From positions 1 to 64,000 of IMG/VR virus record IMGVR_UViG_3300006076_000002: 64,000 bases of DNA; one strand, given 5' to 3'. Under the pieces are notes generated by a model that searched no databases, was not told the DNA's origin, and was given only the letters and a program-made list of their open reading frames with translations. Within the stretch, counting starts at the first letter, position 1. Every line of letters begins with the position of its first letter. This stretch comes from a virus. Position numbers and translations under genes: made by a program. Of the stretch, positions 2,103 through 30,470 are shown in pieces.

Positions 2103-2546
2103 TCAGTCTCCTCTACGTCTATTCAGTTTAGCTTTCTTTTCGGTAACTAGTTTGTCTACAGTCTCTACCATATTGTTGAAGCTAGTGTAGTCTGCACTGT
2201 ATACCATAGCTGACGTGGCATTAGCTACCTCCACACTACCAGTATTGTCAAAAAATAGCGCCATAAATTCATCACCACCTATCCTATACACTTCCCACAA
2301 ACTGTCTATTGCCTGTATGTCCATAGCTATCTGTCTAATAAGTGTATCACCAGCCCCATACCCTTGCTCTCTATTAACCTTATGCAGTCCAGCAGCATCG
2401 TACATAACTAAGTAGAATGTTTGATTCTGCATCTTAGCCCTAGTCTCAACTTCGAAGTCTCTACGCATTTTCATGCCGGTAAGATGGTCATATTTATATA
2501 ACCTAACCATATTCTTATATATCTTTAGCTCTTCTTCACAAGTCAT
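2103..2546 (-). CDS. stand-alone GGDEF diguanylate cyclase
   Basis: DHLTG, YDAAGLHKVN, G.GAGD, YRIGGDEF. Confidence 0.88.
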   Translation of the reverse strand: MTCEEELKIYKNMVRLYKYDHLTGMKMRRDFEVETRAKMQNQTFYLVMYDAAGLHKVNREQGYGAGDTLIRQIAMDIQAIDSLWEVYRIGGDEFMALFFDNTGSVEVANATSAMVYSADYTSFNNMVETVDKLVTEKKAKLNRRRGD

Positions 2547-2548
2547 AG

Positions 2549-2668
2549 TTACCCTTTCTTATAAACTACTGTATCACACTTAGGACATCTAATAACTCCT
2601 GCTATTAGTCTCATCTTCATACCTTTCTTACACTTCCAGCAGTAGTGTTCTAAATATACTATATCCAT
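2549..2668 (-). CDS. 39-aa zinc-ribbon protein
   Basis: Manual translation MDIVYLEHYCWKCKKGMKMRLIAGVIRCPKCDTVVYKKG; two CxxC; GGGAG RBS; fills the gap between neighbours. Confidence 0.6.
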   Translation of the reverse strand: MDIVYLEHYCWKCKKGMKMRLIAGVIRCPKCDTVVYKKG

Positions 2669-2670
2669 AA

Positions 2671-2910
2671 CTACTCCCTACCGAAAGCTAAGTGCCCTAA
2701 CTGATTGAATACCCATTTTGATTCTTCATCATTAGTATGTACAGGTAAACTAATCCATTCTCCACCAACTATAGATCTATCATCTGGTATATTCTCCGGG
2801 AAACTATACTGTACTACTTCACCATCCTCAAATGCTATCTTAACTATTAGTGGTTTTCTTGTCTCTTTATCTTTAATCGCGTACCTATCGTCTATTTCAT
2901 CGTTAATCAT
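2671..2910 (-). CDS. hypothetical protein
   Basis: 79 aa, AGGA RBS, preceded by TGGTATAAT. Confidence 0.6.
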   Translation of the reverse strand: MINDEIDDRYAIKDKETRKPLIVKIAFEDGEVVQYSFPENIPDDRSIVGGEWISLPVHTNDEESKWVFNQLGHLAFGRE

Positions 2911-2935
2911 ATCTAATCCTGTGTTTTGTTATGAC

Positions 2936-2980
2936 ATTATACCATAGCTACTATTATAGGTATATAAGGTTAATTTAAGG
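2936..2980 (-). promoter_or_regulatory. host sigma70-type promoter(s) for the leftward operon
   Basis: Minus strand reads ...TATAATAGTAGCTATGGTATAAT (extended -10). Confidence 0.5.
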
Positions 2981-2989
2981 TAGGGCTTA

Positions 2990-3290
2990 TTGGGTAAATT
3001 TTTTAACTTTTGTGAGGGGTACCATATAAGCTTAAAGTTTTCTTAAGGGCTTATGTTGAGATGTGATTATTTTTTAGGAGGGGGTTAGTATCCACACTTT
3101 CACACTCCAACACCGAACACCCCGCCCCTATATAGACTTACCAGTCATTTCTTTCACACAGCTATCGCTACACACAAGCTCCTCAGCCAACAGTAACACT
3201 TCATCCTATGTCATTGTATACCTATCAGCTTATCGTTCCATATAGAGCAGATATGACTGTCACCTTTCACTAGCATAGCATATTAGTTTA
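2990..3290. other. divergent non-coding region, probable genome end / terminal repeat and first early promoter
   Basis: Strand switch, G-run then C-rich tract (GGAGGGGGG...CACCCCGCCCC). Position before early genes matches N4-like organisation (inference). Confidence 0.45.
3261..3284 (+). promoter_or_regulatory. putative early (vRNAP) promoter motif, copy 1
   Basis: CACCTTWCACTAsCnTAG motif repeated at 3261, 3635, 5876, each upstream of an RBS and early gene. Confidence 0.55.
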
Positions 3291-3355
3291 TGCTTACATA
3301 TAGCTATACCTGTAAAGCTCAGGCATTCCGCAACTACTGCGACGAAGGAATCACT

Positions 3356-3610
3356 ATGAAAGTAATTAAAACTTATGAAGAGTTTACAGCTACTGTAGAC
3401 GCATTAGCTAAACTATACCCTACACTTACTAAAACTGTATGCATCTCACACGGTAAAAGCATATTCACTGATATAGCTATGACTAAAGATGTAGCAGGTC
3501 AAACCCTTACTGATATCTATGGTAAACAAGTAGCTACTGACATCATCGGTGCTCTTATCCGTCATAAAGCCTATGGCTACTACCTAGCTAGACCTGTTCT
3601 TGAGGTTTAG
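3356..3610 (+). CDS. early hypothetical protein
   Basis: Start moved to ATG 3356 (AAGGA RBS). Confidence 0.7.
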   Translation: MKVIKTYEEFTATVDALAKLYPTLTKTVCISHGKSIFTDIAMTKDVAGQTLTDIYGKQVATDIIGALIRHKAYGYYLARPVLEV

Positions 3611-3634
3611 TTAAATGGCTACTTGTTAGCCTAT

Positions 3635-3658
3635 CACCTTACACTAGCTTAGCAAATT
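3635..3658 (+). promoter_or_regulatory. putative early promoter motif, copy 2
   Basis: CACCTTACACTAGCTTAGCA. Confidence 0.55.
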
Positions 3659-3857
3659 TAATTTAAAGGAGTTCTGATGTTTATTGCACCAGACGGAACT
3701 ACCCATTCTTCACTGAATGAAGTTCGTATTTATATGAGCCAAAAATAGCTCGTACTTCAATGATAAAGTATTTAACTAACTCAATAGTTAATTAACCCAG
3801 TATAGTTGTAAAGCTCAACCATTTAATACCACACCAAGTGTGAAGAAAGGCAATATT

Positions 3858-4208
3858 ATGGCAAGATTATTAAAAGATTTATCAACAGCAGTATCACATT
3901 TAGCAGGTGCAACAGTATCAGTAGCAAGTAACTCAGCAAAAGTAATTGACAGCTTAGCTAACAGCACTACAACACTTATTGACGGTACATCAGAATCTAC
4001 TGCTAACCTAATGAAGATTTCCACTAACGCTACAGCAGAGTGGGCACAAGATAGTGAGTATTCATTCAAGAAAAACACTATGGTAAACGAAGCTAAACAA
4101 AAAGCATTAGCTAGTGTTATGCAAGATGAAGACACCTTAACTAAACTACAAGAAGCAGAAAAAGCTTCACTACTAAATGACATCTTCGAAAACTACGACC
4201 TAGTATAG
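3858..4208 (+). CDS. early hypothetical helical protein
   Basis: Start likely ATG 3858 (AAAGG RBS); followed by terminator. Confidence 0.7.
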   Translation: MARLLKDLSTAVSHLAGATVSVASNSAKVIDSLANSTTTLIDGTSESTANLMKISTNATAEWAQDSEYSFKKNTMVNEAKQKALASVMQDEDTLTKLQEAEKASLLNDIFENYDLV

Positions 4209-4232
4209 TGAGCTTCTTCGGCTCACTTGTCT
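4207..4232 (+). terminator. intrinsic terminator
   Basis: AGTGAGC-TTCTTCG-GCTCACT hairpin right after the stop. Confidence 0.6.
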
Positions 4233-4498
4233 ATACACTTTTAATTACAAAGAAGAGAGTTCTTAGAGAGTGGGAATGCTTACATTATTGTTAGCTTTTA
4301 TTTACAAAGAACTACTCTTCGTCTTTTTATGTGGGGTGGTGTTCAATACTCTATATATTATATATATAATAATAGCAGTATTTGATGAGCTATGGGGCAA
4401 AAACCCTTTGAAACCTCGTGCAGTAGGGGCTTACAGAGGATTTTACCCAATCCTAGAAATGTCTCAGATTACGGTTTTCAGACAGAAACCTGTATGAA

Positions 4499-4530
4499 TT
4501 TAAGGTTTTCAGACAGTTTTATGTTATAAT
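4499..4530 (+). promoter_or_regulatory. sigma70 promoter overlapping a 13-bp direct repeat
   Basis: TTTAAG...TGTTATAAT; GGTTTTCAGACAG at 4473 and 4504. Confidence 0.6.
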
Positions 4531-4578
4531 GTTATGAAAAGAAGAGGTAGAAGAAGTACCTCTTATAAGGAATGATAA

Positions 4579-4962
4579 ATGTATTATAACACAAATGAAG
4601 TAAAAAAGCTATATAAGATAGTAAATATGGATAAAAAACGCCATAGAGAAGGACGAAAAGTGTCAGCAGATATTCGTAGAGAAATAATCAAAGAGTTGAA
4701 CCCTACTGCGTATGTACTATACGAGTACTATGTAGAAAAAGTAGAAGCACCAGAGTTTGACTTGTTTAATGATAAAATAATAGGTCAAGTATTAGGATTG
4801 TCAGAAAGAACAGTCAGAGAGTACAGAAATAAGCTAGAAAAAGCAGGTTTTATCAGGCTGTATCGTAAAAAACTAGGGGACATTGAAGCTCATGATTATT
4901 TCATAGGTAAAGATAAAGTCTTAGAACACTCTTTAATGTTAGAATCTGCAGAAACCCCTTAA
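4579..4962 (+). CDS. winged-helix DNA-binding / replication-initiator-like protein (paralog 1)
   Basis: IGQVLGLSERTVREYRNKLEKAGFI HTH; similar to 28974..29429. Confidence 0.7.
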   Translation: MYYNTNEVKKLYKIVNMDKKRHREGRKVSADIRREIIKELNPTAYVLYEYYVEKVEAPEFDLFNDKIIGQVLGLSERTVREYRNKLEKAGFIRLYRKKLGDIEAHDYFIGKDKVLEHSLMLESAETP

Positions 4963-5341
4963 ATAGGGCATTTCTAAGGATAAAACCTAGTGGAATATGT
5001 ACCTAACCTGAACCCTACCTTAATTTCCCTACCATTAAAACCCTCAACTTCAGTTCAATGATGTATCATCCTAATATTTTATACCACACTTTATACCATA
5101 ATATAGGTATATTTTGGTAAAGTTTAAGTAAACAGTGGATAGAAATGTCCGTTTTACGACTACTGTTTAAGTGTATATAATGTTTTATACCAATTTCATA
5201 AAAAGGAGACATAATGACCGCACTATTCATCTTAATAGCAATAGTAACAACAATCACATTCTTAGTTGCTGTACTAGATACAGTCAAACCTAAGTTGCTA
5301 GAAGACCTAGCAGATAAATTCTTTTAAAGGAATACAGTACT

Positions 5342-5593
5342 ATGGAAATATTAGGTATAATTGCGCTTTTAATAGCAGGTATAACAGTACTATTAGCACT
5401 TGTTGTAGATAAAAGCATGTTAGCTATGATTACATTTGTAGTAGTAGTAATAGCGTTTATAGCATTCGAAGTACATAGAAGTGATTTACAGCAGACAGAA
5501 GAGTATAAACAATATAGAGACCATAGTTATCATAACTACTCTAAAGATAAAGAGTATAGAAAATGGTTAATTGACAACCCAAAGGAGAAATAA
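5342..5593 (+). CDS. small membrane protein
   Basis: Two hydrophobic segments, RBS. Confidence 0.65.
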   Translation: MEILGIIALLIAGITVLLALVVDKSMLAMITFVVVVIAFIAFEVHRSDLQQTEEYKQYRDHSYHNYSKDKEYRKWLIDNPKEK

Positions 5594-5844
5594 TGAAAAC
5601 ACTACCATGGAACCGTATCCTCAAGGATATCATTTACAATCACACAGAAGATACAATCGAATTTACTATCAAAGACATAGAAAACCTTGATAGTTATATT
5701 AACCAAAAGCTATCTATAGCTAATCAACTAGAAAGTCAGAACGAAGGCTTAAGAAAACGAGTAGCTAAATTAGAACAACAACTACTAATTGCTACCTTGA
5801 CTAAGTCTACACAGAAAGTGTCAGACTTCAGTACTTACGCATAG
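5593..5844 (+). CDS. hypothetical coiled-coil protein
   Basis: AAGGAG RBS, TAATG coupling. Confidence 0.65.
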   Translation: MKTLPWNRILKDIIYNHTEDTIEFTIKDIENLDSYINQKLSIANQLESQNEGLRKRVAKLEQQLLIATLTKSTQKVSDFSTYA

Positions 5845-5875
5845 ATATTCCCAGTTAATTACCTATCTCTACTTC

Positions 5876-5899
5876 CACCTTACACTACCCTAGATATCT
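5876..5899 (+). promoter_or_regulatory. putative early promoter motif, copy 3
   Basis: CACCTTACACTACCCTAGAT upstream of the RNAP cluster. Confidence 0.55.
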
Positions 5900-5962
5900 T
5901 TATGTGTTACCTGAAATGGTTCCTTACTTTATACTAATTATACATCCGTAGGAGGATACATC

Positions 5963-6781
5963 GTGAAATATACAATCAATACTAAAGCAACAAACCCAGT
6001 TATTAATGAAGAACTTAAAGTACTTAGAGCAACTAACAAAGACTTAGCACTTAACATCCGCAAAGCATATAATTCAATGCTAAACAAAGAGTTTACGGAA
6101 CTTCCACAGACTCCAGAAGACTTAGTTCCTTATATGACTAACAAGAATGTAGCACAATTCGTTAAACCTGCTATTGCTAATGTTATCTTTAATCTTATTC
6201 AGTTCAACGAAGAAGACGCTTGTTGTGCTCAAGAAGAAGCTCCAGTAGAAGTAACTACAGCTCCATTAGATTTAAGTACAGCTACTCCAGCACAACTTAC
6301 TCAAATATTGTTCGATGATTTAGGAACAGAAATCCAATCACAGATTCAAGCTATGACTACAAGTCTCAAACTTAAACTAGATCTCTTAGATGAGCTTAAA
6401 GCCTCTCTCAAAGAACTATACCCAGATATGCAGTCAGAAGTACTTACAGAAAAGTTAGCTAATGCTCTTGCAGTAACTAAGCTTAAAGTTGGCAGTTCAC
6501 TTGCTCTTAGAGAAGGCTCATTAGCTGTATACGACTATATGAATACAGATCTAGTAGTAGACTCTAAGAACTTTGAGTTTATGGCTTCATTAGACGCAGA
6601 TAAGACTAAATCTCTTGATATTCTTATATTGCAGTCAGCGTTCCGTAGCTATAAAGAACAGGTAGCTCAAGGTAATTTACCAGCAACTAGTCCAGAATTA
6701 AATTTAGCTATAGCAAAAGCTATCAGTGGCATTCAAACTACATCGGAGGATACTAAAGCAAAATTAGCAAACCTCTTCTAA
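5963..6781 (+). CDS. hypothetical protein next to the RNAP gene (possible RNAP subunit or accessory factor)
   Basis: 272 aa, strong AGGAGG RBS, GTG start; function inferred from position only. Confidence 0.6.
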   Translation: MKYTINTKATNPVINEELKVLRATNKDLALNIRKAYNSMLNKEFTELPQTPEDLVPYMTNKNVAQFVKPAIANVIFNLIQFNEEDACCAQEEAPVEVTTAPLDLSTATPAQLTQILFDDLGTEIQSQIQAMTTSLKLKLDLLDELKASLKELYPDMQSEVLTEKLANALAVTKLKVGSSLALREGSLAVYDYMNTDLVVDSKNFEFMASLDADKTKSLDILILQSAFRSYKEQVAQGNLPATSPELNLAIAKAISGIQTTSEDTKAKLANLF

Positions 6782-6784
6782 TAA

Positions 6785-6810
6785 GCTAAGCCTTCGGGTT
6801 TAGTTAACTT
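6785..6810 (+). terminator. UUCG-tetraloop hairpin / terminator
   Basis: GCTAAGCC-TTCG-GGTTTAGT. Confidence 0.6.
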
Positions 6811-6839
6811 ATCAGCACCATAATAACAAAGGCGTACTA

Positions 6840-8558
6840 ATGAAATATCCTAAAATACTAGCAAAACACATACAAACATTAAGCGGTCTTAAAGACTCAG
6901 TAATAGAAGCAAAAGTAAAAGAAATAGTTACTAATGATATGACTATAGAAATGTTAGTAGGTAATGTAACTAACGCACTACTTAAGTCTAATAATTGTAT
7001 AGCAACAGTTAATGTACATGATTATAACTTCAAAAAAGCTCTTATATTAAGAGTAAATAATGTAGTTAAAAATATAAACTTTAACTTAACTAAGCAGACT
7101 CATACAAGCATAGATAAGAACGGTACTATGTACACATATACTGTAAACTATATAACAGGGGAACGCAGTAAAAAGGATCAACCTAAAGTATGGTTCTATG
7201 AAGCAGACAGTTTTATAGACTATGCAGAAATGAAAGGTTCATTTGTAAAGTTTGACAATAACTCTACAGAATTACTCAGTAGACGCTTAGAAGTACCTCT
7301 TAGAGTTAAAGAGATAGCACCTAAGTTCGTTAAACTTTACTCAGCTATACTCTATATGGATACTAAAAATGCGGATAGAACAGAAGCATTATCTAGTTAT
7401 CGTAAACGCTTAGAAGCAGTAGCTGATGAAACTATTAGTTGTATGGGTTATGAATACGAAAACTATCGTAAACTAGACTCTAATACTCGTAATTATCCAC
7501 TATCTAGATTTGGATTTGCAGTAGAATACGGAGACGCATTCGAAAAATTCCTTATAGAACCAGCACAAGAATACTTAGTGGATAAAACAGAAGTTAAGTA
7601 CGCTAAACAGTACCTAAAAGCAGAGTTTAATGTAACTTCTATCAAAACATTAGTTAAAGAAGCAGAAACTAAGTTAAAAGTTAATCTTAAACTTCTAAAG
7701 CTATTTAACCAAGGTAAAAAGGTAGACTTTACTATTACTCATAAAGAAGTAGGCAAATTACTCCATATAGTAGATGTATATTATAACATCATCAAGAACG
7801 AGGGTAATATGACTCGTAGTTGTGTTAGCTATGATTACACTAATTCAGGCGGTATAAACGCATCTAACCAATTTGGTGATGAGCAATTCTGTAAGGCTAT
7901 GAACTTATTAGGTGGTAAAGAAAAGTTTGATACTCATCAAGCTATAGCAGACTATTTAGGTATATCTAGAGATGACGCTAAAAAAGTAATGCAAGGGCCT
8001 AATCACGGAGGTAGAGTACCAGCCAACCTTACTGATATGGTAACTACAGTATTTGGAGATAACTATAAGTATATAGGTAAAATAGCTATGTATGGTAAAA
8101 AACTAGCATTAGCAGGAGTAAACTCAGTAGTCTTAGAACGTCTTGACGGTATCAAAGCTGTTTGGTATCCATATGTATTAGGTGCAGAGGTATCTACTGA
8201 AGACGGAGCTACAGTAACTGCTGAAATGCCATTCTTATACAATGTACAAGCTAAAGACCATAAAGCATTAGGTCTAGCAGTATCTTGCTTACATAGCCAA
8301 GACGCATTCACAGAGAACTATGTATTTACTAAATTGCTAGATAAACATAATATACATATGAAGACTACTTTAGATAACTTCTACGGTAGACCTAGCATCA
8401 AACCGTTACTTATTAAGTATACATTTGAAGCATTAGAACTAGCTAAAGGTCACATAGAACGTCAATTACAAGACATAGAAAAACAAACAGGTATCAGTAG
8501 AGAGTGGACACTTCCAACTAGAACTGCTACTTTAGTACCTTCTGAAAACATCATATAG
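6840..8558 (+). CDS. single-subunit T7/N4-type RNA polymerase (middle RNAP)
   Basis: DSNTRNYP (DxxGR-like), YDYTNSG (motif A), RDDAKKVMQGPNHG (motif B), LHSQDA, TLDNF (motif C). Confidence 0.8.
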   Translation: MKYPKILAKHIQTLSGLKDSVIEAKVKEIVTNDMTIEMLVGNVTNALLKSNNCIATVNVHDYNFKKALILRVNNVVKNINFNLTKQTHTSIDKNGTMYTYTVNYITGERSKKDQPKVWFYEADSFIDYAEMKGSFVKFDNNSTELLSRRLEVPLRVKEIAPKFVKLYSAILYMDTKNADRTEALSSYRKRLEAVADETISCMGYEYENYRKLDSNTRNYPLSRFGFAVEYGDAFEKFLIEPAQEYLVDKTEVKYAKQYLKAEFNVTSIKTLVKEAETKLKVNLKLLKLFNQGKKVDFTITHKEVGKLLHIVDVYYNIIKNEGNMTRSCVSYDYTNSGGINASNQFGDEQFCKAMNLLGGKEKFDTHQAIADYLGISRDDAKKVMQGPNHGGRVPANLTDMVTTVFGDNYKYIGKIAMYGKKLALAGVNSVVLERLDGIKAVWYPYVLGAEVSTEDGATVTAEMPFLYNVQAKDHKALGLAVSCLHSQDAFTENYVFTKLLDKHNIHMKTTLDNFYGRPSIKPLLIKYTFEALELAKGHIERQLQDIEKQTGISREWTLPTRTATLVPSENII

Positions 8559-8591
8559 CAGAGCCTTCGGGTTCTGTTGTTTTTTTTTTTT
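8556..8591 (+). terminator. intrinsic terminator
   Basis: TAGCAGAGCC-TTCG-GGTTCTGTTG followed by a long T run. Confidence 0.9.
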
Positions 8592-8673
8592 CGCTACCGC
8601 TTGTTTCCTGCGGAATGCTTTTTATTTTTTACTTATAAATTTGTAAAACAATAAAACTTATAAGGAGTTACAT

Positions 8674-9093
8674 ATGAGTGATGTTATAATCGGATTAATA
8701 GTTATAGGTGCCATTATTTGGTACACTGTTTATGAAATGCTTGAAGAAGCCAAGAAAGATAAGTACAAAGAACAGCATAATTTTGATGTTATGAAAACTA
8801 TAAACGCTACTTCTAAAGGTCATAACTTTGCAGTTCCACGTATTAACTACAAAGAAAAACAAGAGTATTTACAGAGTGAAGCATGGCAAAAACTATCTAA
8901 CACCATAAGAGTACAAAGTGATTTTACTTGTGCTAAATGTGGTAATTGGGGGGTTGAAACTCATCACCTACACTACGTAAACTTTGAGCATGAGCCTTTA
9001 TCTGACTTAGTTTGCTTATGTAGAGACTGTCATCAATCAATACATGATAAGTATGGATACTACAATAAAGAAGATAACTATCCTATTACTTAA
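8674..9093 (+). CDS. HNH endonuclease with N-terminal hydrophobic segment
   Basis: CAKC...ETHHLHY...LVCLCRDCHQSIH. Confidence 0.8.
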   Translation: MSDVIIGLIVIGAIIWYTVYEMLEEAKKDKYKEQHNFDVMKTINATSKGHNFAVPRINYKEKQEYLQSEAWQKLSNTIRVQSDFTCAKCGNWGVETHHLHYVNFEHEPLSDLVCLCRDCHQSIHDKYGYYNKEDNYPIT

Positions 9094-9125
9094 ATATTAT
9101 AAAGAAACACAACAAAGGAGATGCC

Positions 9126-9416
9126 ATGGATTTCGCATTTTTAGGAGTTATTGCATTTTTTAACTTTGCAGTTATTATTGCTAAACTCAACCGATCACGC
9201 TATGCAGATGCTACTATAGATGTAGCTAGTTTATTTTTTCTAAATGCTATGTTTGCCGGATCGTTTGGAGGAGCTGTAGTTGCTACTGTAGCAAGTGCAG
9301 TTATGTCAATATACTTATTCTTTACTCCATTGACTTTTTTAAACTTTGAAAGTAATGAAGAAGATGAAATTGCAGAAGAACCAGAAGACATTTTAGCCAA
9401 ATATGGCATAAAGTAA
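9126..9416 (+). CDS. small multi-TM membrane protein
   Basis: Three hydrophobic segments, acidic tail, AAGGAG RBS. Confidence 0.7.
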   Translation: MDFAFLGVIAFFNFAVIIAKLNRSRYADATIDVASLFFLNAMFAGSFGGAVVATVASAVMSIYLFFTPLTFLNFESNEEDEIAEEPEDILAKYGIK

Positions 9417-9700
9417 AAGTACACTTTTAGCTCTATACTTCAATGACAAAGTTTTTGAAAACTACATATTCACTTCAATGATAAAGTATGCAGTTTAAGT
9501 TAATATTAAGCTATAAAAGCAATTTAATAAAAGGAAAATAGTTATGGCATATTACATAGAAAATACTAAAACTGGTTTAGGTAAATATCTTAATTGGTTT
9601 GAAGGTAAATTTAATGCAGTAGAATGGGTAGAGATTTATAATTTCTACACTAAACATAGTAGTTTTACTATTACAGTAATTAACGAATAAGGAGAAAATT

Positions 9701-10255
9701 ATGACAGGTGGAATGAACTTTGGTTATAATGTAATAGCTAACGGTATAGGGGGTGTATATGCAGGAGGAGTTGAAGGTGGAAGTACTTTTAAAGATTCCA
9801 GTAGTAGTGTCATTAATAAAGTCAGGATACTTGATTGGCTAGTTAAAAACCACAAACAAAATGCTATTAATGATGGCTATATTAAACTTCCAGAGAGTAA
9901 ATAAGCCATTATTAATGAAGCTAAAAAGTACAATGAGGCTATTTTCATTAAAAAACAAAAGGCTAAGACAATACTAAAAATAATGATAGAGGAGTTACTA
10001 GAGACAGTAACCATAGGTTTAAAAGGAAACACTATAGCACAACGACTCGATTATTTCATAAAAGATGGGCATTATAGCAGTTTTTTAAGTGAAAAAGAAA
10101 TAAATAATCGTTTATCTATTATAAAAGAACAAAAGAAAGTTATTAGTAAAATGCGTAATAAGCCTATTAATACTAAAGGTATGTATGTATTAACAGATAA
10201 GGGTTATGATACTTTTAAAGTAATGGTAGAAATTGGAACGTTAACCTATAAATAA
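9701..10255 (+). pseudogene. ORF interrupted by an in-frame TAA at 9902-9904 (or readthrough gene)
   Basis: 9701..9904 and 9983..10255 are in frame and joined by 26 sense codons. Confidence 0.5.
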
Positions 10256-10310
10256 TATTTAACCGTAAAGTTATAAAACTATAAAATTTAATAATCTGTA
10301 GGAGGATGAA

Positions 10311-10751
10311 ATGAAAAATTTAGAAAAAACAATGGTAGTTATTGGGTGTCACTGGCGTTGGGACGTAGCTACTAAAGCTAGATTAGTTGAGTATATCATC
10401 AAAAATGGTATTCATATGCAAGAAGGCACAATTAAAGATCGTTATGAAGCTATAGCTGAGGAATACAGCGTTAATATTCAGTCTATACATAATTGGGTTA
10501 AACAATATCAATTTGTTTATAAAGCAGTTAAAAAAGCTCCTAAAGGTACAATAATTTTTTCACCTTTAACTGTTAAATAAGGCAAAGAAAAAGTTACAAG
10601 AAAAAAGCTTAAAGAACTTCATAAAGAGCTAGCTAAACTACGTAAAGTAGTAGAAGAAGCCTCATTAGCTACAGAAGATGCAGAAACAGTACGTAATACT
10701 ATGAAATCTGTACAAGAAGAGTTATCAGAAGCATCTATTAAATCAGAGTAA
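10311..10751 (+). CDS. HTH-like protein; frame continues past TAA 10578-10580 into a coiled-coil extension
   Basis: IAEEYSVNIQSIHNWVKQY HTH; 56 further sense codons to TAA ending 10751. Confidence 0.5.
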
Positions 10752-21877: not shown

Positions 21878-22097
21878 ACAGGGTAAGGAAGTAGACCATT
21901 ATCTAGTATACGCAACTATCATCAATAATCGTATAGTTACAGGTAATAGTATATCTTGGGATAACGATATTGCACAAGCTACTAGATTTACTGACCTATT
22001 CAAGTTAAAAAGAATAAAAGATAAACTTGTAGCAGAAGATAAAGACTATGATATAGATAGTCAATGGGATTATGAAGTAATAACTGTAAAAGATTAA
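21846..22097 (+). CDS. small protein, divergent NIFEAK-family member
   Basis: W..DIAQATRFTDLFKLK...YEVI. Confidence 0.5.
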   Translation: MQKFVLKLINKQGKEVDHYLVYATIINNRIVTGNSISWDNDIAQATRFTDLFKLKRIKDKLVAEDKDYDIDSQWDYEVITVKD

Positions 22098-22146
22098 GCT
22101 TTTATTAGTTATACTTCTACCCCACAAATTTAATTTAAGGATACAT

Positions 22147-24354
22147 ATGACAACATTAGAAATTACTAAAAACTATTTAGAACAACGAGGAGCATTTACT
22201 CCTACTATTCACGAAGTAGTTAACGTAACGTCACAAACAATTGGAGGAGACATACCTGAACACCTCAAGCTATCTATTACTCTATCCGAATTAATTACTC
22301 TTACTTCTCATTTACGTAAGAACATCCAACTTTCTGATGGCACTATAGTTCCTTGTAATGCTATTTCTATTGCATTGGCAGCTAGTGGTGTAAGCAAAGA
22401 TTCATCTATGAATAAAGTACGTAGAGCTCTTCAACCCGCCTATGAAGTCATAGCCCAACGACGCAAACAACTAGCTCGTCAAGCCGCAGAACAAGCAGCT
22501 CTCGACGATGGTCAATCTTCTGAGGAGTGGCTTAACTACTACGAAGCACCACCAGCTTTACAAGTAGGACTAGGAACCCCAGAGGGTTTGGTAAAAAATT
22601 TTGCAATGCTAGAAGAAAGCCCACTTGGAGCAGCATCTATTAACTCTTCTGAAGTAGGTTCTGAGATGCAAACTAATCAGTCTTTCCTAGACATAGTAAA
22701 GACTATTTCAATTGGTTACGACTTAGGAAAAGTACCAATCAAGGTAGTTAAAGCAGCAGAAAATCGTGTAGGTGCTATTGAACACTTACCAATAAACGCT
22801 CTAATGTTTGGCTCTGAGGATGCAATCCTATACGATAACTTTATCAAAGCTAAGTTTCGTTTAATGTTTAATACCCAGTTAGCACGTCGTTCATTGTTTA
22901 GCTTCTCAAAACAACGTCCAGTACCTCGTGTATACAAATCAGAGAAAGAACTTCTTAGATACCACGAATTACAACGTACAAATAGCAAAACAGCTAGATC
23001 CAATATTGAGAACTATTTAGTGGATATGGTAGAATTTACTACTACTACTCCATTGACTTTATCCAAAGAAGCTCAAGCAGCATTTGATATGTACCTTGAA
23101 TACAATGATAACTTATCCCATGATATTAGTCCTCAATTACCTATCACTAAACTATCTCGTAAACATAAGCAGTGGTTAGCTCTTAAGCTATCAGGTAATT
23201 ATGCAATTCTTGATGGTGAGCAGGAAATCAGCGAAGAGAATTATATCTTAGCCATCAACACGGTAGAAGAACTTGCTCCAGATTTAGAAACATTTGAAAA
23301 AGAACTTAATAAGGAATTATATGAACAATTTGTGGATTACTGTAGATTACATATTGGTAGCGACGATAAGCTTAGCCTTTCTATACATGAACTTAAGAAA
23401 CTAGGTTATCTGCCTGCAACTAATAATTACCAAGCTAAATTAGATGAACTATTAACACTTACTTCCTCTTATGATGCTGAAGGTATCTATACGCGTTGTG
23501 ATGATGGTGTATGTTATGAACCAATTATCAAAGACTCTGAATGTGGTTTATCACTACTATCATTTACTAAACATGAAGCAGAATCACCAGCCGAACTCAA
23601 ACAGCGTATGGCTAAATCTTGTAGTTCGGGTTACGAATTCTATGAAACCCCATTTGAGGCCTTAGCAGATGTACTATCACAATATGCAGCTTACTCTCCC
23701 TTCTTATTCAAGAATGGTAAACGCTCTAAGGATAATCTAGCTGGTAAAACTAAATGGATAGTACTTGATATTGATAATTCTAATATTACTTATGAAGAAT
23801 GTCATCTATTATTATCAGATTATAACCATCATATAGCAACTACTAGTGATGCATCTAATGAATTTAAATTCCGTGTATTACTTGAACTAGATAGCTTAGT
23901 AGATATACCAGCAGAGAATTGGAAGTATTTCATTGAATCTATAGCTAACGCTCTAGGATTGAACGCAGATTTACTCCCAAAAAGTCAAATATACTTTTCA
24001 TATGCTTCAGATAATATACTATCAGTTACAGATGCAGAACCTATTGAAGCTAAACAACATGTAATTAATGCATCTAATCATACTAAACCTGAGCAACCTG
24101 CCACTTTATCTGCTAAAGCTAAAACAGCAGCATTAAAAGACCCTAGAGAAACATTTGCATATGCTTATGAATGTACCGATAATGGTTCAGTTAATCTGTA
24201 TAAAGCAGCTAAGCATGCACACGATCTGGGAGCTAGTAAAGAAGAGATTATAAATCTAGTGTGGGATATTAACTCATATTGGACGGTAAGTATGGATCCT
24301 GAGAGAATACAACAAACAATCATCTCTCAAGTTTCACGTTGGCAATACAAGTAA
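22147..24354 (+). CDS. phage primase (N-terminal DUF3987-like NTPase region, C-terminal primase-polymerase-like domain)
   Basis: AASGVSKD; WIVLDIDN, HHIATTS, KFRVLL; size similar to N4-like primases. Confidence 0.7.
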   Translation: MTTLEITKNYLEQRGAFTPTIHEVVNVTSQTIGGDIPEHLKLSITLSELITLTSHLRKNIQLSDGTIVPCNAISIALAASGVSKDSSMNKVRRALQPAYEVIAQRRKQLARQAAEQAALDDGQSSEEWLNYYEAPPALQVGLGTPEGLVKNFAMLEESPLGAASINSSEVGSEMQTNQSFLDIVKTISIGYDLGKVPIKVVKAAENRVGAIEHLPINALMFGSEDAILYDNFIKAKFRLMFNTQLARRSLFSFSKQRPVPRVYKSEKELLRYHELQRTNSKTARSNIENYLVDMVEFTTTTPLTLSKEAQAAFDMYLEYNDNLSHDISPQLPITKLSRKHKQWLALKLSGNYAILDGEQEISEENYILAINTVEELAPDLETFEKELNKELYEQFVDYCRLHIGSDDKLSLSIHELKKLGYLPATNNYQAKLDELLTLTSSYDAEGIYTRCDDGVCYEPIIKDSECGLSLLSFTKHEAESPAELKQRMAKSCSSGYEFYETPFEALADVLSQYAAYSPFLFKNGKRSKDNLAGKTKWIVLDIDNSNITYEECHLLLSDYNHHIATTSDASNEFKFRVLLELDSLVDIPAENWKYFIESIANALGLNADLLPKSQIYFSYASDNILSVTDAEPIEAKQHVINASNHTKPEQPATLSAKAKTAALKDPRETFAYAYECTDNGSVNLYKAAKHAHDLGASKEEIINLVWDINSYWTVSMDPERIQQTIISQVSRWQYK

Positions 24355-24525
24355 GGGAGACTAAATGAAAATAGCTCTTATAATAATAATGACAATGGTA
24401 GCTTATATTTTTGCAGGATTAGCAGGACATTATATCGCACTAGGCGATTATAGTGCAGCTGCAATTGATACTGTAACAGTAATTATAGAGTTGATTTTAA
24501 TATCTAATACCTTAAAGGAGTACTA

Positions 24526-24744
24526 ATGACTAATGAAGAAGAACACACCTTAGCTATGAGTCTTGTGTATGCTTTAGGTGCTAAACGTAAAGTAATAGAA
24601 TTTAAAGATATGTTAACTGATGAAGACATAGTTGAAATAGTAAATGCATTAGTTACCTTCGAAAACTCACATAAAATAGCTAAAGGTTTCAAAGATTCTC
24701 AAGTAGCTTATGCTTTAATGCAAGAACTACAAGCTCAACAATAA
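24526..24744 (+). CDS. hypothetical protein
   Basis: AAGGAG RBS, TAATG coupling. Confidence 0.6.
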   Translation: MTNEEEHTLAMSLVYALGAKRKVIEFKDMLTDEDIVEIVNALVTFENSHKIAKGFKDSQVAYALMQELQAQQ

Positions 24745-25130
24745 CGCTTTAGGTGACGAAATGTAATATGTGTAGACTGCACATGAGTTATAAACAACCG
24801 TATCAGACTTACTGTTTTTCAAAACCATCAGTAATGTAACTGGGGCACCTAATTTTATAGTTATCATAGAATCTCCGAGCATTGACACTACGCTTCTAAT
24901 TAGTGTCTTTTATATATATATATATGTATAAAACTAATTAAAAAAGTAAAAGGAACCTAAAATGAGAATAAAAAATTATGATATATTTTTTGGTGCAATA
25001 GATGGGATTATATCTAAAGGTACAAATAAAGCTATTACTACTTATGTAGGTAAAGTAGAAGCTACAGAATATGTTGTTTATATCTTGTTTTTTATACGTA
25101 TTTTAAAACGTAAATAAGGAAGAATATTTA

Positions 25131-25574
25131 ATGAACTGGATATATAATGATAAAGAAATCACATCTATAGATCAACTACCAGCTAATGCATATGGTTTCA
25201 TATACATGCTAGTTTACGATACAAATAAGGCTTATATAGGCAAGAAAAACCTTTACTCATATCAAACCTTACCTGCACTGAAGAACGGCAAGCAGAGGCC
25301 TAATTCTGAACGTATAGGTAAGAACAGAAATGGTAAACGAGTGTATTTTGATAAAGTACGTAAAGAAAGTGGATGGAAATCTTATAAAGGTTCATCCAAG
25401 GAAATCCCCGATGAAGTTAAAATAGTAGAAAAGCACATTCTAGCTATAGCCTATGACCGTAGAGAACTTACATACTTAGAGACTAAACATTTATTCTGCT
25501 ACGAAACTATAGAATCATCCGATTTCTATAATAGGAATATACTGAATAAATTTTTTAAAGAAAAAGGATTATGA
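25131..25574 (+). CDS. GIY-YIG (Seg-like) endonuclease-family protein
   Basis: YGFIY...AYIGKK, W.SY.GSS, FYN.NI. Confidence 0.75.
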   Translation: MNWIYNDKEITSIDQLPANAYGFIYMLVYDTNKAYIGKKNLYSYQTLPALKNGKQRPNSERIGKNRNGKRVYFDKVRKESGWKSYKGSSKEIPDEVKIVEKHILAIAYDRRELTYLETKHLFCYETIESSDFYNRNILNKFFKEKGL

Positions 25575-25653
25575 AAAAATCAATACGAAATATGGGTTTA
25601 ATTTTACAGTTGAGTCTATTCAAAGCAATACAATTTATGAGAAGGATCGCTAA

Positions 25654-26331
25654 ATGAAAAACATGATGATGAACGCTGAAGCAGCAAAAGCTATTATTGA
25701 TGATCGCAAAATTCAAACGAGAAGAGCTGTCAAAGCATCAGATGCTGGAACAATAAAAGATGTAAAAAATGGATATGTGTATGTTGATGTAAATTATAAA
25801 GTGTTTGTGGACAACTACAAAATACCTATCAATAGTTTTGTTGAAAAAATTTCAAAATATCAAGTAGGAGATATTGTTTGGGTAAGAGAGCCTGTTGAAA
25901 TAGTAGAATTTATTGATACCGATGCTTACTTAGAGTTGTCTTTTAAATATATTGCAGACAGTACAATCGATTCAATCAACAGTGATACTACAGAAGAGCG
26001 CAATCTTATTGATTTTTACGAAGAAAAACTACATGGAAAAAATTGGGTAAAGGTAGGTAATAGAGTTACAAGCGGTTGTTTGAAGGAGATGGCTCGTATC
26101 TTTTTGAAGATTACTGATGTTAGGGTTGAGAGGTTGCAGGATATATCAACTAGCGAGATTGAAAAAGACGCAGGTGTTGTTAAAGATAAATACAAGGTTT
26201 GCCCTAGCTGGGCAGATAGTATGGTTATTGATTTTAGTATATTATGGGACAAAACCTCACCAAAAGGCTATAAATGGGAAGATAATCCTTATGTGTTTGT
26301 ATATGAGTTTGAAAGAACTGAAAATGGATAA
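25654..26331 (+). CDS. ASCH/PUA-like phage protein
   Basis: AIIDDRKIQTRR, GD.VWVRE, LKITDVRVERLQDIS, W..NPYVFVYEF. Confidence 0.75.
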   Translation: MKNMMMNAEAAKAIIDDRKIQTRRAVKASDAGTIKDVKNGYVYVDVNYKVFVDNYKIPINSFVEKISKYQVGDIVWVREPVEIVEFIDTDAYLELSFKYIADSTIDSINSDTTEERNLIDFYEEKLHGKNWVKVGNRVTSGCLKEMARIFLKITDVRVERLQDISTSEIEKDAGVVKDKYKVCPSWADSMVIDFSILWDKTSPKGYKWEDNPYVFVYEFERTENG

Positions 26332-26584
26332 TGAAGCAACTGGAGAATACTTAGAAAGGCTAGACAATAGCTCTCTTTGTCCCGTTTGTAAAGAAGAGTT
26401 AAATGATGATGACGGAGTATTTTTTGACAAAATGGCAGATATTAAAAAATGTCCATATTGCCACACGACAATTGAGTATGTTAAACAGTTAAAAGAAGAT
26501 ACGGGAAATCCCTATTGTAATTATGTATGGGATAAAACTTATATAAAATGGGAAAAGAAAGAAACGATTATAACAAATGCATAA
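26324..26584 (+). CDS. zinc-ribbon protein
   Basis: Real start probably ATG 26324 (MDNEAT...); CPVC...CPYC. Confidence 0.55.
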   Translation: MDNEATGEYLERLDNSSLCPVCKEELNDDDGVFFDKMADIKKCPYCHTTIEYVKQLKEDTGNPYCNYVWDKTYIKWEKKETIITNA

Positions 26585-26801
26585 GGAGTATAATATGAAA
26601 GATTGGGCAGTAGTAGTAATAGCGTCTGCAATACTACTTACTCTTATAATGGGGGCAGTTATTGAGAACGCTAATAAAACACAAATGGCAAAAAATGGAT
26701 TAGAGGAATGTTTAGCTAACCCTAATTCATGGAGTAGCCGAACTATATGGGTAAAATCATGTAAAGAGTATATGAACACAATGAGAAACAATAATGAATA
26801 G
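26577..26801 (+). CDS. small membrane-anchored protein
   Basis: TM helix, two Cys. Confidence 0.55.
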   Translation: MHKEYNMKDWAVVVIASAILLTLIMGAVIENANKTQMAKNGLEECLANPNSWSSRTIWVKSCKEYMNTMRNNNE

Positions 26802-26988
26802 CTTAATTACTAAAAATATAGTTAAAAAGAAATCTGATAATACAACTATTACAGCCAAAGTTACTGAAGAATTCAAACACAAATGGGATAAGTGGGTATT
26901 TGATAATAATATAAATAAAGCTAAAACACTACAAGCAGTACTGACAAACTTAATGGAGAACTATGATGAAATCAATCAAAATAGGTGA
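26794..26988 (+). CDS. possible ribbon-helix-helix protein
   Basis: TTITAKVTEEFK..W strand-helix-helix pattern. Confidence 0.4.
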   Translation: MNSLITKNIVKKKSDNTTITAKVTEEFKHKWDKWVFDNNINKAKTLQAVLTNLMENYDEINQNR

Positions 26989-27241
26989 TACAGTATACTA
27001 TAGAAATGACTTTAATGACATAACTAAAGGTAAGGTACTACAACTGTTAACAAATCATGACCATACAGGAAAACCTTACACAGTAGCCTTAGTTAAAACT
27101 ACTAGCGATAAAATTATTTGGCATCACGTTATTGAAATAAATTATTTAACAACTGATAATACAAAATACAATAAAGAACAAGAACGTATTAAAATTAAAG
27201 AACAAATAGAACAATTACAAGAAAGGTTAAGAACATTATGA
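26963..27241 (+). CDS. hypothetical protein
   Basis: IKIGDTVYY SH3-like start, coiled C-terminus. Confidence 0.55.
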   Translation: MMKSIKIGDTVYYRNDFNDITKGKVLQLLTNHDHTGKPYTVALVKTTSDKIIWHHVIEINYLTTDNTKYNKEQERIKIKEQIEQLQERLRTL

Positions 27242-27669
27242 ATACCGATTTAACTATCACACTAACAGGTAAAGCAGCACGAGATTATGTAAACCAAGAA
27301 GGTAGATATAATATCCTGGTCAATAAGTATGAGGAAGCATTACAGACAATTGAAAAGTTATCTAAGCATAAACCGACTGCTGAAGAACTTAATAATAAAT
27401 ATAACCAAACTATAGTATATGAAGAAACAGAAGAACCTGCACCTATAATCGAACCTAATCCTGTAGAGTTTCCTGCTACTAAACCTAAAACTAAGTCGGG
27501 TTCACACTGGACAGAGGATGAATTAAAGCCTATTAAACACGCTTTAAAATTAAACCATACTCTTGCATCTCTTAAAGTTAAGCTATCTAATCGCAGTGAA
27601 GCAGCTATTAGAACTAAGTTGATTGAGTACGGTGTAGGTGTAAAAAATAATAAATTATATAAACGATAA
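27238..27669 (+). CDS. protein with C-terminal Myb/SANT-like HTH
   Basis: WTEDE...L.NRSEAAIRTK. Confidence 0.55.
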   Translation: MNTDLTITLTGKAARDYVNQEGRYNILVNKYEEALQTIEKLSKHKPTAEELNNKYNQTIVYEETEEPAPIIEPNPVEFPATKPKTKSGSHWTEDELKPIKHALKLNHTLASLKVKLSNRSEAAIRTKLIEYGVGVKNNKLYKR

Positions 27670-27677
27670 GGATAACT

Positions 27678-27890
27678 ATGACTATTTTCAGAGTAGCTTA
27701 TAAACCTGTTATCAATGATAGGGTAATACAACATTTAATAGAAACATATGACCCTGCTATGATTGAATATGATGATAACGGAGTACAGTTTAGTATTGAC
27801 GATGTAATTGAATCTTATCAAGATTTAGGTATTGAAGACAGTATATTAAATGAATTACGTAAAGAAAAAATTGACTATGTGGAGTTTTAA
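27678..27890 (+). CDS. hypothetical protein
   Basis: ORF with RBS. Confidence 0.55.
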   Translation: MTIFRVAYKPVINDRVIQHLIETYDPAMIEYDDNGVQFSIDDVIESYQDLGIEDSILNELRKEKIDYVEF

Positions 27891-27892
27891 TT

Positions 27893-28501
27893 ATGCAACC
27901 TTGTAAATCTGATTATGATTATGAACAATTAGTTACTAACTATATTGAATATAACATCAATAGTAATATCGAATACAATAATGGTGAACCTTTACCAGAT
28001 AAGTTTACATCTACTGCTCAAAGAAGACTTAGTTTTGATGGGCCTTATCTAATTAGTTATAACACTAGAGTAGCTAAATTTGTACATACCAAAAGAGCTA
28101 CGTACTTATTAATAGATATAAATAGTTATTCTAATACAACTACTAAACAACTACGTACACTACAACAAATAGTACTTAATGGTATATATACAGTAACAAA
28201 AGGTGTAATAATTATAGAAACAACGGATATAGACAATTCTTTTAATGCTGTAAAAGATTACTATTTTGAACGTATTACAGATACCTATAAGTACTGTAAA
28301 AAAGCACGTGTAAGTAGACCTCTACAAGCTGCTCTAGAAGCGTATAAGTCCTTTATCCAATCAATTCTACCAGAATTGCATTATAAGACCAGAGAGGCTA
28401 CTCTACGTAAGCTACAAGAGCTACCTAATATACCAGATAAGTTAGATAAGTTTACTAGACCTATTTTGTTATCAGTACTTGAAAGTAAAGGGTTAATTTA
28501 A
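27893..28501 (+). CDS. phage hypothetical protein
   Basis: LISYNTRVA...YSNTTTKQ motif. Confidence 0.65.
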   Translation: MQPCKSDYDYEQLVTNYIEYNINSNIEYNNGEPLPDKFTSTAQRRLSFDGPYLISYNTRVAKFVHTKRATYLLIDINSYSNTTTKQLRTLQQIVLNGIYTVTKGVIIIETTDIDNSFNAVKDYYFERITDTYKYCKKARVSRPLQAALEAYKSFIQSILPELHYKTREATLRKLQELPNIPDKLDKFTRPILLSVLESKGLI

Positions 28502-28973
28502 CCCGGTGTGAAAACTAAGCTGGTCAACATACTACACTACAGAAAGCCTCACCACCTGGCCGAGATACTTCGTATCAATTCGGCTGGCGGTGCTTCGTTT
28601 TCTTTGTGTATTTCTTGCTTTACTCTCCTCTTATTTTTTCTTGAGTGCAGATAAGATACGGTGCGATTTATCGCAAGGAGTAGCTTATTTGAACGAAAGT
28701 AGACAAACCGAAGGTTTGGATATAGTTATAGCCTAGCGCAGCCTTTAGTTATTTCTTTTCTTACTTATGTCGTTTCTATTAATTATATATGTATATATGA
28801 TAACCTATAAAATTAGTGGAAACTACCTAAACTTAGTGTTTTCTAGTAATTAAACCTAGTTAAATATACTGAAATATACAGAAGAAATAGTTAAATTTAA
28901 GGAAGAATACGGTATAATTACTTATATTTAATAGCTCCAACTATTAAGTATAATAACCGTATAAAGGAAAGTC
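28502..28973. other. hairpin-rich then AT-rich non-coding region (origin-like) with sigma70 promoter
   Basis: Several hairpins (GATAC-TTC-GTATC, CAAACC-GAA-GGTTTG), AT tract, TTTAAG...GGTATAAT near 28896-28918. Confidence 0.45.
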
Positions 28974-29429
28974 ATGAGTAATTATACACAAAATTACCTT
29001 AAAGTAGTAACTAAAGGTTACAAACCAAATAACAGTTACCCAATAGATGGTATTAAACCAATAAAGTATGTTAGAGGAGAATACATGTTATCACAAGAAT
29101 TTAAACGAAATATAATAAAAACTTTAGGAGCAGATGCTTATATTTTATACGAGTATTTTTATGATACTACTAGAGCCAATGGTAGAATGATACCCACTGA
29201 TGATGAAGGCATAGGTAATACATTTGGATGGTCAAAATCTAAAGTGACTAGGTTAAAGAGTCAGCTAAAAAAAGCTAACTATTTGCTTATTATAAAAGAG
29301 TCAACTACCAAAGGCACAATATTGTATAAAGTCTTATTAAATCCTAGTATTATAACACAATATAAAAATACTGGAGAACTACCTGATGAAATAGAAGTAA
29401 TAGGCAAGGAAGAACGTGGAACCAACTAA
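28974..29429 (+). CDS. winged-helix DNA-binding / replication-initiator-like protein (paralog 2)
   Basis: AYILYEY, IGNTFGWSKSKVTRLKSQLKKANYL. Confidence 0.7.
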   Translation: MSNYTQNYLKVVTKGYKPNNSYPIDGIKPIKYVRGEYMLSQEFKRNIIKTLGADAYILYEYFYDTTRANGRMIPTDDEGIGNTFGWSKSKVTRLKSQLKKANYLLIIKESTTKGTILYKVLLNPSIITQYKNTGELPDEIEVIGKEERGTN

Positions 29430-29445
29430 CAACGAAGGATAACTG

Positions 29446-29892
29446 ATGAATACGTCAAGCAGAATAAACAAAGTAATATACGAGCTAGTGTCATACTATA
29501 TAGATAATCAACTACCTTTCAATATTATCGCACTAGATAAGGAAGATAGTTTTGATTTACCAAAAGAAGTGTACTACGATAATAGCAACGCAGTATCTAT
29601 AGATATACTAGAATGGAATCTAGAGACTGCTGAGTATGACGATAAACATTTATATGTAACATATGTATATAACAATGAGGAAATACCTCTAACTATACCG
29701 CTAGTAAACATAAACACTATTATGGATATGACACATAGAAGTATAGTATTTGTAAACATATTTGAAACAAATATAGATGATGTAATAGTTACTGATACAA
29801 ATCTAAAAGTAGAAAAATATGTAAAAACACATGAAAAAGAGATAGCTCATTCAATGAGTTGTTTATCTCTATGCAACAGTAAGGACGTATAA
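29446..29892 (+). CDS. hypothetical protein, possibly SspB-like fold
   Basis: Recalled resemblance to a conserved epsilon-proteobacterial protein (LP.E...ETA..DD..L....IPL..I..I...FVN); unverified. Confidence 0.35.
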   Translation: MNTSSRINKVIYELVSYYIDNQLPFNIIALDKEDSFDLPKEVYYDNSNAVSIDILEWNLETAEYDDKHLYVTYVYNNEEIPLTIPLVNINTIMDMTHRSIVFVNIFETNIDDVIVTDTNLKVEKYVKTHEKEIAHSMSCLSLCNSKDV

Positions 29893-30224
29893 TGGCTAAT
29901 ATATTAGGACAAGACGAGATAGATGCATTGTTAGATGTATGCGATGAAACTACAGACTTAGAGAATTTACAATATCTAAGAGCCTTCTTTAGAGAAGCTC
30001 CTGTTGAAGGTACTGTTAATGACACCTATATACGAGTATCTAACAATTTAGCAAAAGATATCATAAAGCAACTTGGTAGTGCTATCATAACATTGGAACG
30101 TTTAACAGAAGATGGTAGTAAGGCTAAAAATAGTTATAAAGAATGCGGTACTTGTACAGTGTGCGGAACATACAACGACCCAGACAGGCAGGTATGTAAC
30201 TGCGCCAATAAGCAATTAATTTAG
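29892..30224 (+). CDS. protein with FliM N-terminal CheY-binding-like peptide and C-terminal Cys cluster
   Basis: MANILGQDEIDALLDVCDE matches the FliM ILSQxEIDALL motif; CxxCxxC...CxC tail. Confidence 0.7.
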   Translation: MANILGQDEIDALLDVCDETTDLENLQYLRAFFREAPVEGTVNDTYIRVSNNLAKDIIKQLGSAIITLERLTEDGSKAKNSYKECGTCTVCGTYNDPDRQVCNCANKQLI

Positions 30225-30245
30225 ATATATTGATAAGGGCATATA

Positions 30246-30470
30246 ATGAAAGATATACTAAATGAAAAAGAAGTAAATGAGATACTAAATATTTTAAGTA
30301 GCTATAGCGAGTTAGAGAACTTACAGCACATAAAAAGCTATTTAAAAGAAGTACCTATATCTGGTACAGTATTTAATTCTTATGTAGAAATACCTAGTAA
30401 TACTGTAATAGATATTATTAAACAACTAGACAGAGTTATTACTATTTTAAAACAAACAGAAAATAACTAA
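30246..30470 (+). CDS. tandem paralog of 29892..30224 with degenerate FliM-like peptide
   Basis: MKDILNEKEVNEIL...LENLQ...E.P..GTV...DIIKQL. Confidence 0.7.
   Translation: MKDILNEKEVNEILNILSSYSELENLQHIKSYLKEVPISGTVFNSYVEIPSNTVIDIIKQLDRVITILKQTENN

Follow-up and report, generated by a model that had tools for sequence, protein, structure and literature searches.

Short phage proteins that consist of a GGDEF domain only have been described as rare elements of cyclic diguanylate (c-di-GMP) signalling, and a review names Pseudomonas phage YuA among them (PMC10333796). Lysogens of the Bordetella Vojvodinavirus LK3 overproduce biofilm (PMC8471281). No enzyme assay of the YuA or LK3 phage proteins was found in these two papers. 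At the flagellar motor, YcgR acts together with c-di-GMP (PMC12713396), and the FliM sequence LSQxEIDALL (the 'EIDAL' motif) binds phosphorylated CheY (CheY-P) (PMC6700473). Phage GGDEF-only proteins are thus already known; no published description of a phage mimic of the FliM peptide was found. Here we analyzed a stretch of 64,000 nucleotides (the window), which is the first 64 kb of the complete virus record IMGVR_UViG_3300006076_000002 (92,858 bp). It carries a stand-alone GGDEF protein (P0001) and a small protein with a FliM-like N-terminal peptide (P0026), which is followed by a degenerate paralog (P0002). The sequence-only reading had proposed that the two functions form a two-part system for controlling host motility. 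Our results indicate that this N4-like phage probably carries them as separate accessory genes, a predicted diguanylate cyclase and a putative FliM-peptide decoy, and not as one system.

The gene for P0001 (147 aa, positions 2103-2546, minus strand) was characterized by Pfam, profiles, a family alignment, an AlphaFold2 (AF2) model and Foldseek. The protein scored above the cut-off of Pfam PF00990 (38.6 bits compared to 23.8), and a six-frame search gave 36.8 bits. Its GG(D/E)EF active-site motif is intact (RIGGDEF at residues 88-94, with GGDEF at 90-94), and it also has a DHLTG motif. P0001 belongs to a family of stand-alone metagenome proteins of about 147 aa, and in the 22 homologs (55-95% identity) the residues D50, N58, D67, R88, GGDEF, K138 and R144 are invariant. 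When the profile was aligned to solved cyclases, D50, N58 and D67 coincided with the D, N and D of DgcR and PA0861. Going by PleD numbering, we take D50 to be the metal-binding aspartate and N58 and D67 to be the asparagine and aspartate that specify guanine. K138 and R144 are located in the last helix, and the profile alignments end at about residue 117; in our own reading, these two residues may be equated with the phosphate-holding lysine and arginine of cyclases. The RxxD I-site, which is common in cyclases but not required, was not found in P0001, where DSLWEVY stands in place of the motif expected five residues before GGDEF.

Profile matches of P0001 were to DgcR, DgcZ and WspR. The AF2 model (pLDDT 87.9, pTM 0.79) has an N-terminal helix (residues 3-16) that runs into the domain, and every top Foldseek match was a diguanylate cyclase (TM by query 0.66-0.73), among them the coiled-coil-stalk cyclases SadC, DgcB, GCN4-WspR, DgcZ and PleD. 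P0001 shares 95% aa identity with its counterpart in the nearest relative of the phage, IMGVR_UViG_3300003873_000030, compared to 62-87% for the neighbouring genes, which points to strong purifying selection. Judged by these features, P0001 is apparently an intact c-di-GMP synthase. Relatives of this mini-GGDEF protein were found at 38 viral loci in 2.9 million IMG/VR contigs, and GenBank phages yielded nine weak matches and none beyond. At one of the viral loci (L004:1704-2144, on an 11-kb contig), the homolog is split into open reading frames (ORFs) of 84 and 55 aa, maybe by a frameshift or as a decaying copy. We also considered a Cas10-like or minimal-CRISPR-polymerase-like nature of P0001 and rejected it: PADLOC gave no defence-family match for P0001 or P0026, and folds and guanine-binding residues indicate true diguanylate cyclases.

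P0026 (110 aa, positions 29892-30224, plus strand) is composed of a FliM-N-like peptide (residues 1-15), a helix-hairpin-helix body (22-78) and a Cys-rich tail (85-104). Its N-terminus is MANILGQDEIDALLD; that of Salmonella FliM is DSILSQAEIDALLNG. Residues 4-14 read ILGQDEIDALL (LGQDEIDALL being 5-14) and match the N-termini of two genuine FliM proteins at 11 of 11 positions. A degenerate search for ILGQDEIDALL in 185,579 species genomes returned four places, two of which are the N-termini of proteins with the Pfam domains FliM and FliMN_C. The strict motif L.Q.EID.LL occurred in a single ORF out of the 358 of the genome, namely P0026, and in none of 150 shuffled proteomes. A loose motif was found in P0026 and P0002 only, with 0.013 hits per shuffled proteome, and these frequencies indicate that the FliM-like peptide of P0026 is not due to chance. 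P0002 (74 aa, positions 30246-30470, plus strand) is a tandem paralog (36% identity, E 5e-20) with the degenerate peptide MKDILNEKEVNEIL and without the Cys tail. The sequence-only reading had ended its span with this ORF; the peptide that it described is real, but the true mimic is P0026 and the closing ORF is the degenerate copy.

The resemblance to FliM is restricted to the peptide. Neither P0026 nor P0002 had any match in Pfam or NCBIfam; in particular, the CheC-like middle domain and the C-terminal SpoA domain of FliM (models PF02154, PF01052 and TIGR01397) were not detected. The AF2 model of P0026 (pLDDT 64.9) has a helix-hairpin-helix core at residues 22-78 (pLDDT 72-84), and the Cys-rich tail is unmodelled. 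A Foldseek search with this model against the PDB returned nothing under E 2.8, the ESM Atlas gave no usable match, and a PDB sequence search produced noise only. Since no FliM domain, profile or fold was matched, P0026 and P0002 are peptide mimics and not members of the FliM family. When 1.84 billion representatives were searched exhaustively with HMMER, a small P0026 family of 55-86 aa emerged, whose members all lie on short metagenome contigs of at most 4 kb; the consensus N-terminus MADILxQxEIxxLLD is present in seven of nine members. With a narrower alignment of the family, no relatives of P0026 were detected in viral or metagenome contigs, nor were any detected with P0002, and P0026 matched nothing among the GenBank phages in tblastn. 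Because the CheY-P-docking peptide is nearly exact in P0026, this gene alone may plausibly tamper with host behaviour.

The peptide was also sought in other phages. Scanning the IMG/VR contigs with the pattern L[ST..]Q[DE]EIDALL returned 27 stretches, of which 13 lie within the first eight residues of an ORF. The carriers include a 152-aa Cys-rich protein (L071, L154), a 130-aa protein (L104), and proteins of 121-128 aa in records of 132-183 kb. The latter come from cultured Campylobacter phages: a hypothetical protein of 121-128 aa that starts with M-A-x-ILSQEEIDALL is encoded in each of the 44 Campylobacter phage records in GenBank, and in phage NCTC12673 this is ORF149 (L184:4001-4387). The peptide thus recurs on phage proteins that are otherwise unrelated. 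The 130-aa protein (L104:6722-7114, minus strand) starts with MSDGSLSQDEIDALL and is encoded in a record of 94 kb, a provirus according to IMG/VR; it matched the FliM model TIGR01397 weakly over positions 3-95 (E 3e-5) and may represent a captured 5' part of fliM. The scan also picked up 180-aa ORFs starting with VLTQDEIDALL (L112, L129), which, based on the motifs of that fold, we take to be tyrosine integrases and a class of false positives.

Both functions are indeed present in one genome, and they are unlinked, as the sequence-only reading had noted: 27 kb separate the genes, which are read from opposite strands and belong to different transcription blocks. The nearest relative is collinear with our genome at about 80% nucleotide identity and contains the whole GGDEF operon. 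Missing from it is a 2.5-kb cassette (29453-31963, plus strand; blastn) whose eight small ORFs comprise both FliM-like genes, and positions 470/478 of the relative join window position 31963 straight to 29453. A search of this relative for P0002 found nothing. The cassette occupies a variable small-ORF region between replication genes, and a second relative has different small ORFs upstream of the polymerase gene. When co-occurrence was examined across virus records, PF00990 was detected in none of the ten peptide-bearing records (seven of them at least 90% complete), and the peptide pattern in none of the 38 GGDEF-bearing records (12 at least 90% complete); as a positive control, the pattern recovered the window's own site. 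As the nearest relative keeps only the GGDEF gene and both cross-searches were negative, we conclude that the two genes are inherited independently and that there is no evidence for one system. The proposal of a joint system had named an independent, patchy distribution as the outcome that would speak against it, and this is the distribution that was observed. Tampering with host behaviour stays plausible, on sequence grounds, for each gene singly, and the joint action is unsupported. A separate observation in this region concerns the DNA polymerase gene of a relative, which has an insertion of about 1.2 kb (L186:1597-2780) at a site corresponding to window positions 32693/32694; the gene in the window is without it, and the insertion possibly represents an intein or homing element.

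The phage itself has the hallmarks of the N4-like (Schitoviridae-type) group. The giant virion RNA polymerase by which this group is recognized is encoded by two abutting minus-strand ORFs (52537-60678, 2713 aa, and 48317-52537, 1406 aa), both of which matched phrog_2206 (E 7e-56 and 9e-117). Genes for ATPase, helicase, primase, DNA polymerase and ribonucleotide reductase are all located in the plus-strand block. From the split virion RNA polymerase, the DNA polymerase, the primase and the ribonucleotide reductase, we assign the phage to the N4-like type. The genome has a GC content of about 33% and a 99-bp terminal repeat at the ends of the record that resembles a circular-assembly overlap. 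It is organized into two divergent blocks: plus-strand genes extend from about 3290 to 48167, while the minus-strand block starts at 2910, passes position 1, crosses the record junction and reaches as far as the polymerase gene. A search of the window against Rfam returned a tRNA-Lys as the sole match. A Campylobacterota host is plausible in view of the extended -10 promoters, the AAGGA ribosome-binding sites, the GC content and the Campylobacter-phage-like peptide; the likeness to Campylobacterota FliM is judged from the Campylobacter phage peptides.

It had been claimed that host-type σ70 promoters head both operons, and this is credible for only one of them. The GGDEF operon is preceded by the extended -10 box TGGTATAAT (2936-2944, minus strand), 25 nt upstream of its first gene, orf79. 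Of the 13 TGnTATAAT boxes on the minus strand of the genome, six (2944, 60722, 63049, 68458, 76378 and 87771) precede the start of a minus-strand gene by 24-43 nt, one of these genes being that for the virion RNA polymerase, whereas only one plus-strand box precedes a gene. This asymmetry suggests that host RNA polymerase transcribes the late (minus-strand, virion) block. The late genes of N4 are transcribed by host RNA polymerase, and the annotated promoters of Campylobacter phage NCTC12673 are likewise of the "extended -10" type. Given these two parallels and the placement of the box, a host-type promoter for the GGDEF operon is credible. In contrast, the gene run that contains P0026 is headed by an ORF at 28974 with two plain TATAAT hexamers upstream (28913-28918 and 28949-28954, plus strand). 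These have neither a TG extension nor a -35 box and do not stand out from chance, the genome containing 149 such hexamers in total. Generic -35/-10 scans of both regions gave counts at or under the shuffle expectation, and no promoter type common to the two operons was found. The ORF at the head of this run is weakly DnaD-like, and the 470-bp non-coding gap before it (28502-28973) had no Rfam match. In blastn against the nearest relative, the block comprising the gap and this ORF (28492-29453) showed 89% identity, compared to the roughly 80% typical of longer blocks. The gap may serve as a regulatory region or an origin, or may encode an RNA.

Under the explanation that we favour, the two genes would act separately. 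P0001 comprises the catalytic core and a short N-terminal helix, through which the protein may dimerize so that two half-sites loaded with guanosine triphosphate (GTP) meet. Because P0001 has neither a sensor domain nor an I-site, c-di-GMP production, if the enzyme is active, would be constitutive and free of feedback. Its gene is among the first of the minus-strand block, which leads on into the virion genes, and lies behind the extended -10 promoter; by analogy to the N4 late genes the operon is probably transcribed by host RNA polymerase. P0026 and P0002 would each start with a flexible helix that exposes a copy of the FliM N-terminus. Such a soluble decoy would most likely bind CheY-P, and possibly FlhG, which would uncouple the flagellar motor from chemotaxis.

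Several observations weigh against this explanation or parts of it. P0001 remained under the NCBIfam cut-off for a complete domain (TIGR00254; 31.2 versus 37.4 bits), and the model has a loop (residues 99-109) at the usual place of helix alpha3, i.e., the domain is trimmed. H55, R59 and Y63 stand where cyclases have the canonical K, D and H (FK..ND..GH); owing to these replacements, P0001 could be weakly active, or could be a binder of GTP or c-di-GMP. Regarding the decoy, the full EIDALL is found in P0026 only, the other family members having EINILL, EIDELL or EIEALL, so that what the family conserves may be a function other than CheY binding. The N-terminal helix of P0026 (residues 7-18) was modelled with low confidence (pLDDT about 57-60). 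That the host has CheY, FlhG and a c-di-GMP network is an assumption. Finally, the presence of two rare motility-related genes in a single genome could reflect a shared selective pressure.

How far do other explanations account for these data? That the two genes constitute a coordinated system, with c-di-GMP as a brake and the CheY decoy blocking steering, so that host swimming or sessility is reprogrammed jointly, seems improbable. Both genes do occur within one complete genome and both are rare among the viral contigs, and the flagellar motor is a meeting point of the two signals; however, the distance and opposite orientation of the genes, their different transcription blocks, the nearest relative with the GGDEF operon but without the cassette, the complete lack of co-occurrence in the other virus records searched and the lack of a common promoter type all argue against such coordination. 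We give the same slim chance to a sequential attack on both inputs of the motor, in which the CheY-P decoy would be made first, with the replication genes, and the feedback-free cyclase later. The decoy would then blind chemotaxis before c-di-GMP brakes or sheds motility, the infected cell would halt and lyse in a dense patch of hosts, and the co-occurrence of the genes would be adaptive rather than a coincidence. A claim of combined action matters only if the genes do act together, and the present evidence opposes this. As to what each gene would target, P0026 might hit FlhG, a MinD-like ATPase, instead of or besides CheY-P and thereby disturb the number or placement of flagella. We consider this unlikely, if a little less so than joint action, and the same applies to its extension that polar cell division would be disturbed too in Campylobacter-type hosts. 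FlhG contacts FliM/N via the FliM N-terminus (PMC12826062), flagellar C-ring proteins help to suppress polar division in C. jejuni (PMC6946799), and the peptide is found in phages of polar flagellates, namely those of Campylobacter.

A doubtful but more serious possibility is that the cyclase is not aimed at motility, and that c-di-GMP alters surface glycans or matrix, or that P0001 is a catalytically weak nucleotide-binding remnant. The surface version would cover receptor masking, superinfection exclusion and retention of the infected cell in a dense patch. Since infection by N4 needs a glycan receptor pathway controlled by c-di-GMP (PMC8669472), a cyclase carried by an N4-like phage may have the cell surface, and not motility, as its target; moreover, in the GGDEF-bearing Vojvodinavirus lysogens that overproduce biofilm, flagellar motility was raised, not lowered (PMC8471281). 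The trimmed domain and the score under the TIGR00254 cut-off would fit a remnant, whereas the invariance of catalytic and guanine-binding residues across the family favours a working enzyme. It is very improbable, in turn, that the likeness to FliM is a chance amphipathic N-terminal helix without any relation to CheY. The QDEIDALL core does occur in unrelated contexts, for example at the start of the 180-aa ORFs mentioned above and internally in many proteins, but a full-length match at the N-terminal position of real FliM, the conservation of the peptide in the family, the absence of hits in shuffled proteomes and the accumulation of viral pattern matches at ORF starts are difficult to reconcile with chance. 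Two separate accessory genes remain the explanation that we consider most probable.

The GGDEF operon consists of orf79, a 39-aa zinc-ribbon ORF, the GGDEF gene, and the genes for a DUF3307 membrane protein, a T5orf172 protein, orf82 and a PIN-PhoH protein, in this order. The first gene, orf79 (2671-2910, minus strand), had no family match and is kept in the nearest relative (72% aa identity). The 39-aa CxxC...CxxC ORF (2549-2668, minus strand; weak Zn_ribbon matches) is located between orf79 and the GGDEF gene, directly upstream of the latter; the nearest relative also has it, and it occupies the same place in L002. The gene for the DUF3307 membrane protein (1762-2100, minus strand; Pfam DUF3307 43.6 bits, phrog_2470) starts 2 nt past the stop codon of the GGDEF gene. 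It adjoins the cyclase gene only in the closest relative, lies 8 kb away in L003, and was not near the other GGDEF loci. Across 13 viral loci, no conserved neighbour of the cyclase gene was found, and we rejected both the DUF3307 protein and the zinc-ribbon ORF as conserved cyclase partners, each being adjacent in the closest relative only. Downstream of the GGDEF operon genes, the PIN-PhoH fusion protein is encoded across the record junction (window 3-959, minus strand, onward to genome positions 92345-92857).

Compared to the described systems, P0001 resembles the YuA and LK3 proteins in being a phage-encoded, stand-alone and sensor-less GGDEF protein, but differs from them in being encoded by an N4-like phage, in its shorter length (147 aa) and in the lack of helix alpha3. 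It adds a case to a known, biochemically uncharacterized class of phage c-di-GMP genes. The fold and the A-site are the same as in SadC (4wxo), DgcB (6ttr), GCN4-WspR (3i5c), DgcZ (3tvk) and PleD (2v0n), and, as in the stalk or coiled-coil cyclases, an N-terminal helix precedes the DxLT motif. Unlike these cyclases, P0001 lacks a sensor or receiver domain, the RxxD I-site and helix alpha3, and has H55, R59 and Y63 at the sites of the canonical K, D and H.

P0026, for its part, is identical in residues 4-14 to Salmonella FliM (ILSQAEIDALL) at nine of 11 positions, carries the peptide likewise at the extreme N-terminus, and has in D11 the aspartate that pairs with K119 of CheY. Since the middle and SpoA domains of FliM are lacking, P0026 cannot join the C ring; its body is instead an orphan helix-hairpin-helix with a Cys cluster. 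If the peptide binds CheY-P, it would represent a simple and repeatedly evolved phage route to cut chemotaxis from the motor, and, because cultured Campylobacter phages have the same peptide, the idea of a CheY decoy is testable at once. Like ORF149 of Campylobacter phage NCTC12673 (AEA86491.1), P0026 is a small phage protein with an N-terminal FliM-like peptide. The alignment of the two is limited to the first 23 residues or so (13 of 23 identical) and their bodies are unrelated, and the Campylobacter phages, unlike the phage described here, carry the peptide without a GGDEF protein.

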